From the IMG/VR virus record IMGVR_UViG_3300038416_000738: 64,000 nt of DNA; one strand, 5' to 3'. Below are positions 9,854-64,000 of the stretch, piece after piece. This stretch comes from a virus. Under the pieces are notes generated by a model that saw only the letters and a program-made list of their open reading frames with translations, made no database searches and had not been told where the DNA came from. Numbering within the stretch: the first letter of the stretch is position 1; the number at the start of each line of letters is the position of its first letter. A program made the position numbers and the translations under genes.

Positions 9854-10177
9854 ATGACGTGGCGTCCTAACCGGAAGCTGTACCTGTTCCACGTCGAGGA
9901 GTTCGACGCGCGACGCGAGAGTTGGTTTTATTGCGGCATCGTGCTCCTTCCCGACAACGCGACGCGGGGAGAAGTCGCGCACGCGCTCAAGGTCTTCGGG
10001 ATGGCATGCCCGAGGGAATCGGACCGCGTGTCGTGGAGTTACGTCATGCTTCCTGGCCCGGACGGCAAGGGGATGCTCCCGCGGCCGAGGGCGCACGTGC
10101 AGACCGGGGCGGGGGCGCCGATATGCCGGCTCGTGGTGAAGCCGAGCGCCGCGCGCCGCGTGCGTGAGGGCGGTTGA
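9854..10177 (+). CDS. hypothetical protein
   Basis: ATG 9854 in frame with ORF 9758..10177; composition protein-like (W/Y/F-rich). Confidence 0.45.
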   Translation: MTWRPNRKLYLFHVEEFDARRESWFYCGIVLLPDNATRGEVAHALKVFGMACPRESDRVSWSYVMLPGPDGKGMLPRPRAHVQTGAGAPICRLVVKPSAARRVREGG

Positions 10178-14574: not shown

Positions 14575-15392
14575 AGCCTTTTCTTAAATGGGCCGGCGGT
14601 AAGACGAAGCTCGTGCCGACCATCCTCGCGCGCGTTCCCGTGTTCGAGGGCTCGTATCACGAGCCTTTCGTTGGCGGCGGCGCCGTGTTCATGGCGCTCC
14701 ATGCGGCCGGCAAGCTCTCGCGTGCGCACCAGGTGGGCTATGCAGTCCTGAACGACGTGAACGCGGAGCTGATGAACGCGTACGCGGTGGTGCAGGACGG
14801 GGCCACGGACTTCGTGAAGAAGCTCCTCGAGATCAAGCACTCGAAGGAGACGTACTACAAGGTGAGGGCCAAGGAAGAAACGGAGCCGCTCGCGCGCGCT
14901 GTGCGTTTTTGTTACCTCAATAAAACCTGTTTTAACGGCCTCTATCGCGTGAATCGCGCCGGGCACTTCAACGTCCCCATCGGAGACTACAAGAACCCGG
15001 TCATCGTGGAGCCCGACGTCGTCGCCGCATGGCACGCGGCACTCGCGGGCGTGACGCTCCGCTCCGAGGACTTCGAGCCGCGCATCCTCGCCGCGAAGAG
15101 GGGCGACTTCATCTACGTGGACCCGCCGTACCTGCCGCGCTCGAAGACCGCCGACTTCACCTCGTACACGGCGGATCGCTTCGCGCTGAAAGAGCACGAG
15201 CGGCTCGCAGCGGCGCTCGTGACGGCAGACCGTCGCGGCGCGAAGTTCATCGCGAGCCAGGGCGACAGCGAAACGATCCGTGCACTCTACAAAGAGTTCG
15301 GGATCGAGAGCGTCTCGGTGACGCACGCGATCGCCGCGAAAAAAGCGTCGCGTGTGAAGGTCGGCGAGGTTCTGATTTCGAACGTGCGCTGA
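14571..15392 (+). CDS. dam: DNA adenine methyltransferase (Dam/D12-class, GATC-type)
   Basis: N-terminal 'KPFLKWAGGK' SAM motif, 'NKTCFNGLYR', catalytic 'DPPY'; ATG in ATGA overlap. Confidence 0.85.
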   Translation: MKPFLKWAGGKTKLVPTILARVPVFEGSYHEPFVGGGAVFMALHAAGKLSRAHQVGYAVLNDVNAELMNAYAVVQDGATDFVKKLLEIKHSKETYYKVRAKEETEPLARAVRFCYLNKTCFNGLYRVNRAGHFNVPIGDYKNPVIVEPDVVAAWHAALAGVTLRSEDFEPRILAAKRGDFIYVDPPYLPRSKTADFTSYTADRFALKEHERLAAALVTADRRGAKFIASQGDSETIRALYKEFGIESVSVTHAIAAKKASRVKVGEVLISNVR

Positions 15393-34562: not shown

Positions 34563-34831
34563 TGTTTGTTCATGAGGATGCGCGCTTCGAGGTGAAGGTG
34601 CATCCGCACGTCGAGCTTCGAGACGGCAGTCCGCTCATCGAGGGCTCGCGCGTCCCGGTGCGCCGTCTTTGGGACTTTCACAAGCGTGGCGTGCCGATCG
34701 CGACGCTCATCGCGCGCTACCCGCTCCTTGGGCCCGCGCGCGTCCTCAGCGCGCTCGCGTTCGCCTATGACAACGAAGCCTTGATCGCATGGGACTTGGA
34801 GCGGTTGGCCGAGGAAGAAAAGCGAGGATGA
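34562..34831 (+). CDS. DUF433-family protein
   Basis: 'IEGSRVPVRRLWDFHKRGVPIATLIARYP...LSALAFAYDN' matches DUF433 (antitoxin-like HTH) core. Confidence 0.55.
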   Translation: MFVHEDARFEVKVHPHVELRDGSPLIEGSRVPVRRLWDFHKRGVPIATLIARYPLLGPARVLSALAFAYDNEALIAWDLERLAEEEKRG

Positions 34832-37630: not shown

Positions 37631-38031
37631 TGCTCGAGTTGAAGGACGGGCGCTACATCGCTGCCGTTTGGTTCGTTCCGCTCCGGAACGCCGTCGACAG
37701 GAGCGGGACCTTTTTCCAGCGCGCGGACTGGCTCGCCACGCTCTACCGGGACGAGGGTGACGAGACGTTCAAGCTCCATTATCGCTTCCGGTATTACGTC
37801 GATGACAAGATCCAAGGCTCGAAGGATGGGCGCAGCGGGTACCTCGTGGATCTCGTGGGCAAGACCGAATGCGAGGCGACGGCGATCGTCTCCTCCGCGG
37901 CGAGCGTGATCGCCAAGACGTGCAAGGGTGCGGACATTCACAAGATCGTCCTCCGCTCGAGCGACGCGCGCTTCGTCGCCTCGCGCCTCGAGAAAGAAGA
38001 CTTCGTGCATTTCGAGCGCAATCGTGGCTGA
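37630..38031 (+). CDS. hypothetical protein
   Basis: TGATG overlap. Confidence 0.5.
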   Translation: MLELKDGRYIAAVWFVPLRNAVDRSGTFFQRADWLATLYRDEGDETFKLHYRFRYYVDDKIQGSKDGRSGYLVDLVGKTECEATAIVSSAASVIAKTCKGADIHKIVLRSSDARFVASRLEKEDFVHFERNRG

Positions 38032-40264
38032 CGCCCTCGTCTCCAAGAAAGCGGAACGTGGTAAGCCTGCCGAGGAAGTCTCGAACGAGGATCCGGCGGC
38101 GCCGAAGATCGGGCGCTGGTATTGGGTGTCGGACGACGACGGTGAGGGCGGCACGAAGAAGTGGTTTGGCTGCGTCACGCGCGTGGGATCGAACTACGTC
38201 GAGATCACGGCGCCGAGCCGCGGCTACGACCGCGTCCACGAAGACGAGTTTTGGAAGCGCTGCGAGCACGAGCCCGATCCCGAGCGCGTCATTCGCGACG
38301 AGATCGCCTCGCGCCAGGCCGAGGTCCGCGGGCTCATGGACAAGGTGAAGGAGATCACCGCGCGCCTCGCCATCACCACGGGACCGGTGCTCCCCTCGGC
38401 GGGCTCCGAGACCCAGGCGCTCGCGCTCCGCGGAGCGGGCGACAAGGACATGGGCAAGTACAAGAAGGCGCTCGTCCTCGCGAAGGAGAAGACGCTCCCG
38501 GAGCTTTTCAAGGAGATCAGGGACGTGAACGAGGGGCTCGGGCGATGGCTCGCCGCGGAATTGATCCCGATGGAGGCCCAGGCCGAGGCGATGGAGCCAG
38601 CGATTGAGGCCATCCAAGATCGCATCTTCTCGGTCGAACTTTACGCGGGTCTCGTCGAAGAGATCATCCAGATCCGGCAGGGTGAGCCCGCCCCCGTCGG
38701 CGAGAAGATCCGACTGATGCAGCGTCGCTGTTATTGTGATGAGGAGTGTTTGGCGCGCTACGAAGTCGGCGGCATGGAATTCAAGGACATGCACGCCTTC
38801 GATCGCTGGCTCGCGAAGAAGGAAAATATGGAACGGATCCTCCCGTTCCCACGCTGCGTCGCTGCGTTCCAAGTGCGGCGCGCCAAGAAGGAGCGCGAGT
38901 GGGGGAACTTGGCCGAGTTTCTCAACATCATTAACGAGGAGAAGACGGACAAGTTCACGTACCTCTATCTCCGCAACGGCGCGCAGCTCTTCTGCCTCGG
39001 GACGGGCATCGAGTTCGGCGAGCAACTTTTCCCGGACATGGCTTCCTGGAAAGTGTCGAAAGGTGGCCCGCTCTACGCGAAAATGTTCTCGGATCGCGTC
39101 GACAAGATCATCACGAAGGACGAGTACGACGCGATGGTCGAGGAAGAGGAGAAAGAAATCGCGGAAGAAGAAGCGGAGGCGAAGAAGCACCCGGAGAAGG
39201 ATCGCTGGAGGTCCAGGAGTTACTTCCGCGAATCACGCGACTACAAGCCCTTCGATCGCTCGAACGTTCACTACGACGAGATGGTCAAGCACGTGCAGGA
39301 CGAGATGAAGAGGCACAACCGCCTCGTGCTCGTGCTCCAGGGACTGCTCGATCGGTCGCCCGTCTTCCACCCACACCCGCCTTGGGCCGTGTGGACGGAC
39401 GCAGGTTTCGGGCAGGCCCTCGAACTCGTCTACGACGACACGCGCGCGCTCGCGCCTGGCGAGCGCCCCGACTTCGAGGCGTACCGCGCGCGCCTGAACG
39501 CGTCCCTGAAGGCCGGTTCGATCACCATCGGTCAAGAGATCCAGTGGGAGAAGGAGGAAGCGATCAAGGAGAACGCCCGGATGGATCGCGACTACCGCCA
39601 CAAGCGGAGCGACTACCGCCCGACGCGCTACCGTCCCTACGGAAACCCCGGTCCCGGCAAGCTCGCGCGCGTCTTCGAGTGGAAACCCAAGTCGAAAAAG
39701 TGCGTCTACGAGTGGAAGCGGGAGCGCCAGACGCAGACGTGGAAGGACGACGGTAGCTCCATCCGCTGCACGTTCATGGTCGATGCTTCGAAAGTCTTCC
39801 ACGTCGATGCCTACAAGCCCGGAGACTTCCACCAATTCTTCGATGACCCGCGGACGCGCGCCGACTACCTCGAGTGGGCGCCCTTCCTCCTCGCGGCCGA
39901 GGAGTACCACGCGGGAAACCGCAAGGCGCCGAAGCCGCTCGAACCGATCCCGCGGCGCAAGACCGAGGACGGCGCGTGGAAGTACAGGAAGAAAAAGCAG
40001 CGGAAAGCTTGGCTCGGGAAAGCGATCCGTTTGAAACAGGCCGTGACGACGCAAGGCGGGGCGGCCCATGAGAAGGGGACGCTCTGGCGGGTGATCGATG
40101 GTCGCGGCGACCACTTCTCCATCGCGGGCATCGACGACGAGGGACGCCGCCTTCTTGGTGAGGACAAGCGCTTCGTCATGAACGTCCACATGGGCAAGTT
40201 CGAGCTGGACAACGCGGTGCCGCCCGAGCCGCCCGAGCCGGAGGAGGAAGAGGAAGAAAAATGA
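38024..40264 (+). CDS. large hypothetical protein (747 aa)
   Basis: GTG start overlapping previous stop; long uninterrupted ORF with balanced W/Y/F/K/E-rich composition; no recognisable motif. Confidence 0.7.
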   Translation: MADALVSKKAERGKPAEEVSNEDPAAPKIGRWYWVSDDDGEGGTKKWFGCVTRVGSNYVEITAPSRGYDRVHEDEFWKRCEHEPDPERVIRDEIASRQAEVRGLMDKVKEITARLAITTGPVLPSAGSETQALALRGAGDKDMGKYKKALVLAKEKTLPELFKEIRDVNEGLGRWLAAELIPMEAQAEAMEPAIEAIQDRIFSVELYAGLVEEIIQIRQGEPAPVGEKIRLMQRRCYCDEECLARYEVGGMEFKDMHAFDRWLAKKENMERILPFPRCVAAFQVRRAKKEREWGNLAEFLNIINEEKTDKFTYLYLRNGAQLFCLGTGIEFGEQLFPDMASWKVSKGGPLYAKMFSDRVDKIITKDEYDAMVEEEEKEIAEEEAEAKKHPEKDRWRSRSYFRESRDYKPFDRSNVHYDEMVKHVQDEMKRHNRLVLVLQGLLDRSPVFHPHPPWAVWTDAGFGQALELVYDDTRALAPGERPDFEAYRARLNASLKAGSITIGQEIQWEKEEAIKENARMDRDYRHKRSDYRPTRYRPYGNPGPGKLARVFEWKPKSKKCVYEWKRERQTQTWKDDGSSIRCTFMVDASKVFHVDAYKPGDFHQFFDDPRTRADYLEWAPFLLAAEEYHAGNRKAPKPLEPIPRRKTEDGAWKYRKKKQRKAWLGKAIRLKQAVTTQGGAAHEKGTLWRVIDGRGDHFSIAGIDDEGRRLLGEDKRFVMNVHMGKFELDNAVPPEPPEPEEEEEEK

Positions 40265-52550: not shown

Positions 52551-54329
52551 ATGGCGACTCGAATCAAACCCCTGCCCAAGATCATCGCGGCCGTGGCCAT
52601 CGCTGCGGGCCTTTTCTTCGGGATCCGGTTCCTCGTGAACGCGCAGCCCGGCCACGAAGCTTCCGTGCCGAAGACGGCCGCGCTCCCGACGCTCGACGAG
52701 CATGTCTCGAAGGCCGCTGTGCCCGAAACGCCGCTGCCGGGCGCCGCGCTCGCGGGCAAAGGCACGGACGTGCGCATGATGGTGTGGGCGTGGAACGCGC
52801 AGATGGGACTCCTGTACGCGAACGGCGGCGCCGACACGACGCAGGGCTCGCTCATGGCCGGCCACAACGTGAACCTCCACTTCACCCGCGAGAACGACAC
52901 GAGCAAGATGGCGGCGCAGCTCATGGCCCTCGCGACCGATGTCGCGAAAGGTGGCGAGTCGAAGAACGGCGTCCACTTCATCACGCTCATGGGTGACGGC
53001 ACGCCGAGCTGGTTCGCCGGACTCAACGCGGACCTGAAGAAGATCTGCGCGGACTGCACCGCCGAGACCGTCGGCGTCCTCGGCTACTCGCGCGGCGAAG
53101 ACAAGTTCATGGGACCCGCGGAGTGGAAGTCGAATCCGAAGAAAGCCCAGGGCGCGCTCATCGCGGGCGTCATCCGCGACGGGGACTGGAACGCCGCGAT
53201 GAAATGGGCTGGTGACAACGGGATCCCGAACAACCCGGACGAGAAGACGTACGACCCGGACGCGCTCAACTGGGTGAGTGTGGACGACTACCTCGAGGCC
53301 CCGAAGAAATACATCCTCGGCGTCTGCGAAGACCGTCCCGTCGTGCACGCCGGCCACAAGACCGGGCAGACGAAGAACGTGTGCGTGAACGGCGTCGTCA
53401 CGTGGACCCCCGGCGACGTGAACGTCGCGCAGCAGAAGGGCGGCCTCGCGAGCATCGTCTCGACGAAGGAGTACCGGAGCCAGATGCCGTGCGCGCTCAT
53501 CGGAATCCGGAAGTGGGATCGCGCGCACAAGGACGTCGTCGAGGGGATCCTCCAGGCGGCCTTTGACGGCGGCGACCAGGTGCGGAGCTACCCGCGCGCG
53601 CTCGACCGCGGCGGCGAGATCAGCGCGGCGGTCTACAAGGAGGAGAGCGGCGCGTACTGGGTCAAGTACTTCAAGGGCGTCACCGAGAACGACAAGACGG
53701 GCCTGCCGGTGCCGCTCGGCGGATCGTCGGTCTCCGATCTCGCCGACGACATGCAGGTCTTCGGTCTCACGGCAGGCTCCACAAACCTTTTCGCCGCGAC
53801 GTACACGACGTTCGGCGACATCGCCGTCCAGCAGTACCCGAAGCTCGTGCCGAACTACCCGCCTGTCGCGGACGTGCTCGACACGTCCTATGTCGAGGAT
53901 CTCGCGAAGAAGGCCCCAGTGATGACGACGTCCGCGGACGTGGCCGTCTACAAGAAGGATGCGGCGATCACGGAAGTCGTCTCGAAGAAGAGCTGGTCGA
54001 TCACGTTTCAGACGGGGAGCGCGGCCTTCACGCCGGAAGCGCAGAAGACGCTCGACGCACTTGAGAAGGACCTCGTCATCACGGACCTCATGGTGGAGAT
54101 CGACGGTCACACGGACAACACCGGCGACGCCACGGGGAACAAGACGCTTTCCGAGGCGCGTGCCCAGGCGGTGAAGGCGTGGCTCATGAAGCAGTCGACG
54201 ACGAACTTTCCCGCCGACCGCTTCAGCGTCAAATCGTTCGGGCAGGACAAGCCCGTCGCGTCGAACGACACGGAGACGGGTCGCGCGAAGAACCGCCGCG
54301 TCGACGTCATCATGGGGTCGGGGAACTGA
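52551..54329 (+). CDS. membrane-anchored protein with C-terminal OmpA-like domain
   Basis: N-terminal TM; C-terminal '[18 protein letters not shown]...[10 protein letters not shown]' OmpA/MotB signature; central ~400 aa domain unassigned (possibly SBP-like). Confidence 0.75.
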
Positions 54330-62713: not shown

Positions 62714-62916
62714 GGAAGAGAATGTCGTTCAAGGGACATCGTGAAGTTGAGAGCGCTCTCGGTCGCCTCGCGCCAGGCGATCGTCGTGAGCTTGAACTCT
62801 TCCTCCGGTACAGGCGACTCGTGGGCGAAGCTGTGCGTGCGGGTTGCACGATCCGGGAAGCCGAGCGCGCGATCTATCCCGACGTCTATCTCGGGTCGAG
62901 CGAGGAGCGGCCGTGA
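62710..62916 (+). CDS. hypothetical protein
   Basis: ATGA overlap. Confidence 0.4.
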   Translation: MRKRMSFKGHREVESALGRLAPGDRRELELFLRYRRLVGEAVRAGCTIREAERAIYPDVYLGSSEERP

Positions 62917-64000
62917 AATCGATCCCCGTCTTCTACACGCCCAAGATGGTCGTCAGCTCCGAGCGCGCCTCGCCGAGCGCGGGCAAACCGGCCGCCGTCG
63001 TCGCGTCATGGAAAGAAAAATTCCCGATCGAGATCGTCGAACCCATACCCGTCACCGTGGTCGAACTCGCGCGGGCACACGATCGCAAATTCGTGGAGGA
63101 CGTGCTCGCTTGCCGCGCGCCGAACGGCTTCGGCAATCGATCGCGTGAGGTCGCGGACTCGCTCCCCTACACGTCGGGCGCGATGCTCTCGGCGGCGCGC
63201 CGCGCGCTCGAGACGAAGAGCGTGGCAGCGGCGCCGTGTTCGGGTTTCCATCACGCGGGCCACGCGCGGGCGGAAGGGTTCTGCACGTTCAACGGGCTCA
63301 TGGTGACGGCGCTTGCCCTGAAAGAGGAGAAGCTCGCTGAGAGCGTAGGCATTCTCGACCTCGACATGCATTACGGCAACGGCACCGACAACATCATCCA
63401 GAAGCTCGGAATCGATTGGGTCCATCACTTCACCGCGGGCATGAACTGGACGCGGCCCGACCAGGCGAAGGTGTTCCTGGAAGAGGGGCTCGAGGAGAAT
63501 CTCGACCGGATAGTGGTCAACAACGTCGACATCGTCCTCTACCAAGCCGGCGCTGACCCACACATCCACGACCCGTACGGCGGGTGGCTGACGACCGAGC
63601 AGCTCCGCGAGCGTGACAGGATCGTCTTCCAGACGTTCTTCGATTACGGGATCCCCGTCGCGTGGAACCTCGCGGGCGGCTACCAGGTGGAGGAAGACGG
63701 GAGCATCCCGAAGGTGCTCGAGATCCACGACCACACGATGTTCGAGTGCATGAATTGTGACGGATACGAGGACGTCGAGCAGTTTCGGCAGGAGCGAGAA
63801 CAGCCGACCGGTTTCCAGATCGTGGACATCACTGTCGGGTCCACGTGGCTCTACGTTTCGCTCGCGCGCGCATCCAGTGAATATGTTCTTCTCGTGCAGC
63901 GCGATCGTTTCGAACGGATTCGCAAGGCGACGACGGAGCAGCTCCAGCGTTACGAGCTTCTCGCGGACGGAAGCGCGGTCCACTGGCCAGCGATCGACGA
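62913..64000 (+). CDS. histone-deacetylase-family (HDAC/acetylpolyamine amidohydrolase-like) protein, 3' partial
   Basis: GTGA overlap start; 'CSGFHHAGHARAEGFCTFNG' and 'ILDLDMHYGNGTDNI' match the HDAC-fold catalytic HH and D-x-H...D metal-binding motifs; runs off window end. Confidence 0.7.
   Translation, partial: MKSIPVFYTPKMVVSSERASPSAGKPAAVVASWKEKFPIEIVEPIPVTVVELARAHDRKFVEDVLACRAPNGFGNRSREVADSLPYTSGAMLSAARRALETKSVAAAPCSGFHHAGHARAEGFCTFNGLMVTALALKEEKLAESVGILDLDMHYGNGTDNIIQKLGIDWVHHFTAGMNWTRPDQAKVFLEEGLEENLDRIVVNNVDIVLYQAGADPHIHDPYGGWLTTEQLRERDRIVFQTFFDYGIPVAWNLAGGYQVEEDGSIPKVLEIHDHTMFECMNCDGYEDVEQFRQEREQPTGFQIVDITVGSTWLYVSLARASSEYVLLVQRDRFERIRKATTEQLQRYELLADGSAVHWPAID

Follow-up and report, generated by a model that had tools for sequence, protein, structure and literature searches.

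The gene at the 3' end of a 64,000-nucleotide stretch of viral DNA (IMG/VR record IMGVR_UViG_3300038416_000738; the window, below, means this whole stretch) encodes a predicted zinc-dependent deacylase of the histone deacetylase (HDAC) fold joined in frame to a DUF2442 domain of the antitoxin type. The reading we favor, with a probability of roughly 0.55, is that the product, P0001, is a phage-borne class IV-like zinc deacylase that prefers acyl-lysine and whose DUF2442 domain is a module for binding DUF4160 proteins. P0001 presents a familiar type of enzyme in an architecture that is new, and its lineage is an under-described phage-borne one. The gene, its catalytic domain, and the residues on which the argument turns lie as follows.

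62913..64000, + strand: HDAC-DUF2442 fusion gene (product P0001), the 5' 1088 nt of a 1179-nt gene that ends at ~64091, outside the window
62913..63767, + strand: predicted Zn-dependent deacylase (histone-deacetylase fold) catalytic domain, residues 1-285, class IV-like, from PF00850, an AlphaFold2 (AF2) model, and Foldseek
62970..62990, + strand: S20-P21-S22-A23-G-K25-P26, family-specific N-terminal loop motif; S20, P21, S22, K25, and P26 invariant in 52 sequences
63135..63137, + strand: N75, in the family-specific NGFGN motif, aligned to 9gz5; nearly invariant in 52 sequences
63246..63254, + strand: F112-H113-H114 (ttc cat cac), predicted foot-pocket gatekeeper Phe and catalytic His-His dyad; all invariant
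63357..63371, + strand: D149-L-D151-M-H153 metal-site motif, invariant; D151 and H153 are predicted Zn ligands
63555..63557, + strand: D215 (gac), predicted third Zn ligand, motif QAGADPH; aligns with D237 of Leptospira interrogans HDAC11
63681..63683, + strand: Y257 (tac), predicted transition-state-stabilizing catalytic Tyr, motif AGGY; aligns with Y281 of L. interrogans HDAC11

The open reading frame (ORF) begins with GTG at 62913 and runs to 64000 through 362 codons without a stop. The original prediction, made from the window alone, had the gene cut by the window edge, and a database search confirmed this: the complete product is 392 aa long and the gene ends ~91 nt past the edge. Because the same 392-aa product occurs, identical, on 15 contigs from several ENA/SRA samples (the longest of 261,538 bp), the fusion is no assembly artifact. 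One 186.6-kb contig (L001, whose position 10001 corresponds to window 62913) carries an exact copy of the last 2,000 bases of the window and ~10 kb of further sequence.

That the N-terminal part is an HDAC-fold amidohydrolase, as first proposed for 62913-64000, is borne out by profile, sequence, and structure searches. Pfam PF00850 (Hist_deacetyl) matches with an E value of 1.4e-29 and 103.9 bits against a cutoff of 27.9, full-length P0001 gives the same result, and no NCBIfam model matches the protein. A phmmer search of the PDB matched 138 HDAC-family chains, the best being 9rje (1e-18). The AF2 model, built on 52 relatives, has a mean predicted local distance difference test score (pLDDT) of 84.9, with the catalytic core mostly above 90, and Foldseek returned 468 PDB matches for it at an E value of ≤1e-3; the best 50 of the 468 are all HDAC-fold chains, led by Vibrio cholerae HdaH (VcHdaH; 9gky/9gkv) and L. 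interrogans HDAC11 (9gz5), with a probability of 1.00 and target-normalized template modeling scores of 0.74-0.79. By these sequence and model comparisons, the family assignment is far beyond chance. The core ends near residue 285, where a linker of ~15 aa with lower pLDDT separates it from DUF2442, and the ratio of nonsynonymous to synonymous substitution rates (dN/dS) in the HDAC domain, 0.21-0.23 against two syntenic phage orthologs, indicates purifying selection (dN/dS ~0.2).

Residues were mapped by the phmmer alignment to 9gz5 (chain numbering = paper numbering + 3) combined with the residues listed in PMC13325672 section 11, and conservation was read from an alignment of 52 family sequences, in which H113, H114, D149, D151, H153, D215, and Y257 are invariant. 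F112, H113, and H114 align with F122, H123, and H124 of L. interrogans HDAC11 (PMC13325672 sections 11 and 14). The dyad codons are cat cac at 63249-63254, and the D-x-H pair is D151 (gac, 63363-65), which aligns with D161 of the Leptospira enzyme, and H153 (cat, 63369-71); D149 is probably a K+ site residue. The HH dyad and the D-x-H...D metal site of the original prediction can thus be read directly in the DNA, and the metal ligands, whose loss in an alignment with the HDAC family would have told against that prediction, are conserved. P0001 looks catalytically competent, since its catalytic and Zn residues are invariant in the 52 relatives and align with the published ones. If it works as its family does, Zn2+ would be held by D151, H153, and D215, the H113-H114 dyad would activate water and protonate the leaving amine, and Y257 would polarize the scissile carbonyl, so that a carboxylate (acetate or a longer acyl group) would be freed from an N-acylated amine.

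The class I/II motifs reported earlier are present, but the class is not the right one. As judged from sequence and fold matches, the nearest relatives are class IV (HDAC11-like) enzymes rather than class I/II, because the best three sequence matches and the best five Foldseek matches in the PDB are all class IV. The three are 9rje (Chlamydomonas reinhardtii HDAC11, clade A), 9gkv (VcHdaH, 1e-14), and 9gz5 (L. interrogans HDAC11, clade B, 3.6e-12), as identified in PMC11532494 and PMC13325672; HDAC6, acetylpolyamine amidohydrolase (APAH), HDAC7, HDAH, and HDAC8 match more weakly (1e-10 to 1e-5).

Two clades of HDAC11 bear on what P0001 might act on. Clade B enzymes are active fatty-acyl and short-acyl lysine deacylases with an HPFD loop 1, a backbone-binding Glu, and a Phe or Tyr gatekeeper (PMC13325672 sections 10, 13, and 14); mutation of the gatekeeper Phe to Thr abolishes their activity (PMC13325672 sections 13-14), and the basal members prefer acetyl lysine over octanoyl lysine (PMC13325672 section 10). 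In clade A those positions hold HRFD, Gly, and Thr or Ser, and the enzymes were inactive on 17 acyl-lysine peptides, that is, on all that were tried (PMC13325672), which was taken to suggest non-peptide substrates (PMC13325672 sections 10 and 13). P0001 has the clade B-like gatekeeper Phe, and its metal-site motif, DLDMHYGNG, ends in GNG as in the clade B enzyme 9gz5, where clade A 9rje has GDG. Its other signatures fit neither clade: N75 occupies the position of the backbone-binding Glu of clade B (E84 in Leptospira, E94 in human), which is Gly in clade A, and the SPSA loop keeps only the Pro. We take the SPSAxKP motif to stand at the class IV loop-1 (HPFD/HRFD) position, partly on the strength of the human HDAC11 sequence. 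Judged from these signatures, P0001 probably represents a separate compact lineage of ~283 aa beside class IV, belonging to neither clade A nor clade B.

We propose that the preferred substrate would be acyl-lysine on host or phage proteins during infection, with an acyl chain of short to medium length, and that a non-peptide N-acyl amine is the main alternative substrate. The preference for acyl-lysine is suggested because F112 is a gatekeeper of the peptide-active clade B type and N75 sits at the site of the backbone-gripping Glu; shorter chains would be favored because of the same Phe and the basal clade B preference for acetyl over octanoyl. The gene would be an accessory gene of a large tailed phage.

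The remainder of the protein, which the original prediction had left unassigned after ~270 aa, begins somewhat later than that, since the core runs to ~285, and it can now be assigned to DUF2442.

63813..64000, + strand: DUF2442 (antitoxin-type) domain, residues ~301-373, of which 363-373 fall outside the window together with the C-terminal tail
63765..64000, continuing to ~64094, + strand: lineage-specific inserted segment of ~330 bp, from tblastx synteny against L165 and L167

On full-length P0001, PF10387 (DUF2442) scores 41.9 bits against a cutoff of 23.9 (E value 1.2e-10, residues 323-373), while the truncated copy in the window is below threshold (E value 3.7e-4). The family signature HWPxIDEDxS is kept, and AF2 models this part, at moderate confidence, as three strands and a helix. 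The DUF2442 structures that have been solved come from structural genomics and carry no annotation. The domain serves as antitoxin to DUF4160 toxins, as in the dhiTA pair of Dickeya dadantii 3937 (PMC8198452); the DUF4160/DUF2442 pairing is also described in PMC12065111, where DUF4160 is in addition an effector domain in Menshen NsnC. The DUF2442 domain of P0001 most plausibly would bind a DUF4160-type host protein, as a decoy antitoxin or as a tether for the enzyme, and would not help catalysis.

How the fusion arose can be read from its relatives. DUF2442 is absent from 119 of the 120 best homologs, leaving P0001 as the only carrier, and no DUF2442 was found near the HDAC gene at the other loci examined. 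Two syntenic relatives, P0002 (locus L165, 87% identity) and P0003 (locus L167, 77% identity, on a 258.9-kb contig), share the gene order DUF7736, 72-aa ORF, small ORF, HDAC, and onward to Ro60 with the window phage and lack the segment; their HDAC gene ends directly after a conserved HDxTMxEC motif. The tblastx homology with both ends at L001 position 10852 and restarts at ~11185 in the next gene. In place of the final few HDAC codons and the stop, the inserted segment supplies the linker and DUF2442 in frame. On this comparison of sequences, the fusion is recent and private to one phage lineage. A word-indexed homolog search with the C-terminal 107 aa gave no relatives; an exhaustive profile-free search with the window part of DUF2442 gave six weak-to-moderate ones, the best of which, P0121, is a standalone 87-aa protein, 60% identical and alignable to the very C terminus, encoded on a 4.2-kb phage-like contig (L169) of small overlapping co-directional ORFs. 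In the simplest history, a mobile small phage gene would have landed just after the HDAC gene and taken the place of its stop codon. L169 carries both the P0121 gene and a small ORF homologous to window 34646-34786 (at 1707-1970 and 2604-2861), and this suggests small-gene exchange among these phages. Two further HDAC-DUF2442 fusions that tblastn coverage appeared to show, in L082 and L022, were rejected as artifacts: the ORFs stop after the HDAC domain and have no DUF2442 similarity.

Several observations weigh against the favored reading. Among solved structures, the nearest in sequence belongs to clade A, which was inactive on the peptides tried (PMC13325672 sections 10 and 16), and VcHdaH is only a weak de-decanoylase (PMC13325672; PMC11532494). 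With HPFD replaced by SPSA and the backbone Glu by Asn, peptide recognition may have been lost. The window ORFs and flanks hold neither an acetyltransferase nor a DUF4160 toxin gene: acetyltransferases, which had also been proposed as neighboring targets, are absent from the 105 window ORFs (including the 64-aa and 73-aa neighbors) and from the products called over 10 kb downstream, and DUF4160 is absent from the flanking ORFs, the 105 window ORFs, the 10 kb downstream, and the precomputed Pfam annotation of the flanks. When 7,166 ORFs from 160 related loci (76 from IMG/VR, 79 from GTDB, and others) were clustered, no neighbor was shared across groups that might indicate a substrate or partner. 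The pLDDT of DUF2442 is ~65-78, and below 50 for residues 342-365, and the fusion could be functionally neutral. Finally, the 74 kb examined showed no gene for a capsid, portal, terminase, or tail protein.

In a rival reading, the two parts of the fusion do not work together. DUF2442 may simply have landed behind the HDAC gene and removed its stop, the two parts then acting separately or the DUF2442 part being inert; DUF2442 could, for example, be a decoy antitoxin against host DUF4160 while the enzyme works as in its unfused relatives. That the fusion occurs in one lineage only, that the nearest DUF2442 relative stands alone on another phage-like contig, and that a ~15-residue linker of lower pLDDT lies between the domains all fit such an account, which we regard as quite possible though short of probable. 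Set against it, the frame is intact in an identical product on 15 contigs from several samples and the HWPxIDEDxS signature is preserved; yet one lineage without sequence divergence cannot separate neutrality from function.

It is somewhat unlikely, in our estimation, that the enzyme is a non-peptide amidohydrolase that deacylates a small molecule or lipid rather than protein lysines. Candidates would include acetylated polyamines, N-acetylated amino acids and amino sugars, amides resembling antibiotics, and acylated nucleotides or cofactors. The clade A affinity of the best sequence match, with its proposed non-peptide substrates (PMC13325672), and the altered SPSA and N75 positions all point this way. 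So does the setting of chromosomal homologs amid metabolic and housekeeping genes (peptide deformylase, HemN-like radical SAM, YicC, and RelA/SpoT, with an amine oxidase three genes off in Archangium), and giant viruses encode functional acetylspermidine amidohydrolases of the HDAC fold (PMC9992855). True APAHs, however, are distant from P0001, giving only partial alignments (query residues 89-166, E values of 4.6e-8 to 7.4e-8), and the polyamine deacetylation suggested in the original prediction is not favored when the best of these (4.6e-8) is set beside the best class IV match (1e-18). The reported virus APAHs all come from Imitervirales, none from phages (PMC9992855); the gatekeeper is the Phe of peptide-active clade B, not the Thr or Ser of clade A; and no polyamine or small-molecule pathway gene is linked across the 160 loci.

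A more far-reaching form of our reading would make the HDAC-DUF2442 protein a phage counter-defense effector and the SPSA/NGFGN lineage a group of unrecognized host-takeover deacylases with a substrate of their own, which we consider improbable. In it, DUF2442 would dock on host DUF4160 toxins or effectors (free toxins of toxin-antitoxin [TA] pairs, or Menshen NsnC variants), and the tethered deacylase would inactivate the docked effector or remove an acylation mark needed by the defense. PADLOC-DB holds no match for P0001 or for its relative P0009, described below. The related suggestion that the enzyme reverses acetyltransferase-based defenses finds no backing here, there being no acetyltransferase in the 105 window ORFs or 10 kb downstream, no PADLOC match, and no conserved partner.

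That the gene lies on a mobile element, as had been supposed, agrees with our results, and the element is best read as a large phage from its gene organization and homologs. Of 100 predicted ORFs, 88 lie on the + strand, and GC skew is positive throughout; most ORFs are small and without a Pfam match, and many window ORFs match PHROGs. The window encodes an FtsK/SpoIIIE-like protein, an SNF2 helicase, a Dam methylase, Ku, dihydrofolate reductase (DHFR), RlaP, HAD_SAK_2, an ABC-type ATPase, an OmpA-domain protein, a DnaJ-domain protein, and a nucleoside 2-deoxyribosyltransferase-like protein, and genes for Ro60/TROVE-vWA, an RNA ligase, and a NUDIX protein follow 2-7 kb downstream of the HDAC gene. 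The individual features referred to here are these.

37928-40264, + strand: 778-aa ORF without a Pfam or PHROG match, a conserved large-phage protein
5298-7316, + strand: FtsK/SpoIIIE-like translocase, 672 aa (PF01580, E value 1e-58)
52551-54329, + strand: 592-aa protein whose C terminus is an OmpA peptidoglycan-binding domain; L167, a syntenic relative, conserves this protein
62722..62916, + strand: 64-aa ORF upstream of the HDAC gene, without a Pfam match, kept in the syntenic relatives

The 778-aa ORF is 43-44% identical (E values 1e-162 and 2e-144) to hypothetical proteins of Mesorhizobium phage Cp1R7A-A1 and Erythrobacter phage vB_EliS-L02, both cultured Caudoviricetes; at the locus examined in Cp1R7A-A1, the homolog heads a run of small unknown genes comparable to the window. 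An IMG/VR search with this ORF gave no relatives. It is very unlikely, on this evidence, that the window is bacterial chromosome or plasmid and the HDAC gene an ordinary cellular housekeeping gene. Such a view could appeal to the HDAC subfamily's presence beside housekeeping genes on GTDB chromosomal contigs of 1-9 Mb (9.4, 1.9, and 1.4 Mb) and to the absence of a virion hallmark gene from the window. It is countered by the co-directional run of small ORFs, by the many PHROG matches, by the Caudoviricetes homologs and the comparable operon in Cp1R7A-A1, by a repertoire of Ro60, RNA ligase, RlaP, and HAD_SAK_2 described as typical of jumbo phages (PMC7824862), and by the recurrence across samples of contigs of 186-262 kb with conserved synteny. 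That the element is a large phage, apparently of ~260 kb, is well supported but not proven. Least credible of all is a catalytically dead scaffold (pseudo-enzyme) retained for binding only, for although clade A relatives lack measurable activity (PMC13325672), all seven catalytic and metal residues are invariant in the 52 relatives and the domain is under purifying selection.

Beyond the window, the lineage is widespread. A pattern-limited scan of IMG/VR found 76 loci, including contigs of 260-370 kb, one group of which has tail sheath and tail tube genes 2-5 kb upstream of the HDAC homolog; the corresponding scan of GTDB genomes found 358 stretches, mainly in Myxococcota, Burkholderiales, Xanthomonadales, and Nitrosomonadales. 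Cultured or deposited phages contribute just seven matching records, with identities of 27-40%; these include the huge phages LR756511 and LR756504 and Rhodococcus phage E3, whose gp202 is annotated "putative histone deacetylase." No PHROG family matches P0001, BFVD holds only giant-virus HDACs and one Caudovirales fragment, and a literature search found no functional study of phage HDACs. By its distribution, the HDAC lineage is cellular in origin and was captured repeatedly by large phages.

The surroundings of these genes are diverse. The upstream 64-aa ORF and the HDAC gene share 4 nt (GTGA), the stop of the one overlapping the start codon of the other, and translational coupling of the two is likely. 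Across the 160 loci, apparent top neighbors were rejected as antisense shadow ORFs or genes of a single phage clade; the clade-specific ones are an HD-domain YfbR-like protein, a 419-aa unknown protein, tail sheath and tube, and an HNH protein. An RNA-repair link was also dropped, as tblastn finds Ro60, RNA ligase, and NUDIX only in close syntenic relatives and not near other HDAC homologs. At 16 of the 79 bacterial loci a WYL regulator lies ≤3 kb from the HDAC homolog. Two Methylobacter loci (L133, 1078-5032, and L114, 6009-8837) combine a WYL regulator, an ADP-ribosylglycohydrolase, a 79-aa ORF, and the HDAC homolog; in L086 and L131 the homolog is flanked by AAA+ and DUF2779 proteins. The WYL/ADP-ribosylglycohydrolase contexts hint at conflict or stress islands and are too sparse to generalize.

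A few further observations concern gene copies and the accessory content of the element. A second HDAC, P0009 (297 aa, 68% identity, without DUF2442), is encoded at L161 8001-8894 on contig ERZ27250124:k141_837401, equal in length (261,538 bp) to the longest contig with P0001. Its neighborhood is wholly different, comprising a resolvase, DUF7227, and, 3 kb upstream, an RNA ligase. The phage genome may carry two HDAC paralogs of which only one is fused. In a Polyangiales metagenome-assembled genome (L085, 7938-10635, on a 792-kb contig), two paralogs of the lineage, of 309 and 332 aa, lie on the same strand ~800 bp apart with a 148-aa ORF between them. Ku, Dam, DHFR, RlaP, HAD_SAK_2, the deoxyribosyltransferase-like protein, and DnaJ form an accessory region of RNA repair, end protection, and nucleotide metabolism in the window. 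The Ro60/TROVE-vWA gene (555 aa, phrog_850) lies in the L001 12870-15278 region, ~2.8-5.2 kb past the 3' end of the window, and is followed by a 760-bp non-coding stretch with three sub-threshold Rfam matches to Y-RNA-type families (YrlA at L001 14656-14723 and ceN72-3/ceN74-2 at 14975-15045 and 15209-15278); the arrangement resembles a phage Ro60 accompanied by Y-RNA-like genes of its own.

The charting of bacterial Zn-dependent enzymes of the HDAC fold has only recently begun, and substrates have yet to be assigned to an entire branch of class IV. The P0001 lineage adds to this a large, uncharacterized group of ~283-aa enzymes with loop motifs of their own, repeatedly taken up by large phages and nearly absent from phage protein family resources (no PHROG family; one Caudovirales fragment in BFVD). 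Purifying selection on the phage copy suggests a role in infection for the deacylation of some host or phage target. A functional fusion would tie the deacylation of proteins or metabolites to defense by toxin-antitoxin or Menshen-type systems, and its significance would rise considerably if the antitoxin-like domain directs the deacylase to a defense effector; if the enzyme is a generic deacetylase and the fusion neutral, the gene would be an ordinary accessory gene.

Among known systems, the closest are the class IV HDACs (C. reinhardtii HDAC11-1/A, 9RJE; VcHdaH of cluster 5b, 9GKV/9GKY; L. interrogans, 9GZ5/9RJD; and human HDAC11), which share with P0001 the arginase/deacetylase fold, the HH dyad, the D-x-H...D Zn site, and the GGY Tyr. 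Identity in the Foldseek alignments is only ~20-22%, and the P0001 core has ~283 aa where theirs have 300-350. The GNG motif end and the Phe before the dyad match clade B of Leptospira, whereas loop 1 reads SPSAxKP against HPFD (clade B) or HRFD (clade A) and the backbone-binding position holds the Asn of NGFGN against Glu (clade B) or Gly (clade A); none of the class IV enzymes compared has a DUF2442 domain and none is phage-encoded. Bacterial APAH and HDAH/AcuC-type deacetylases share the superfamily and the catalytic chemistry and match more weakly (E values of 1e-6 to 5e-8 over ~55-75 residues around the active site).

The other HDAC-fold genes of viruses (E3 gp202, unannotated ORFs of LR756511 and LR756504, and the Imitervirales APAHs) are likewise found on large viral genomes. 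The giant-virus enzymes are APAH or class II-like and act on polyamines biochemically (PMC9992855), and the phage copies come without the DUF2442 fusion. No enzyme fused to a TA antitoxin domain was found in the papers examined that mention DUF2442 or, P0001 apart, among the 120 best homologs. Measured against the DUF4160/DUF2442 TA pairs themselves, the C terminus of P0001 is a significant DUF2442 match with the family signature kept, but it has no DUF4160 partner nearby, and where the free antitoxin is a protein of ~70-100 aa, the domain of P0001 is phage-borne and fused to an enzyme.

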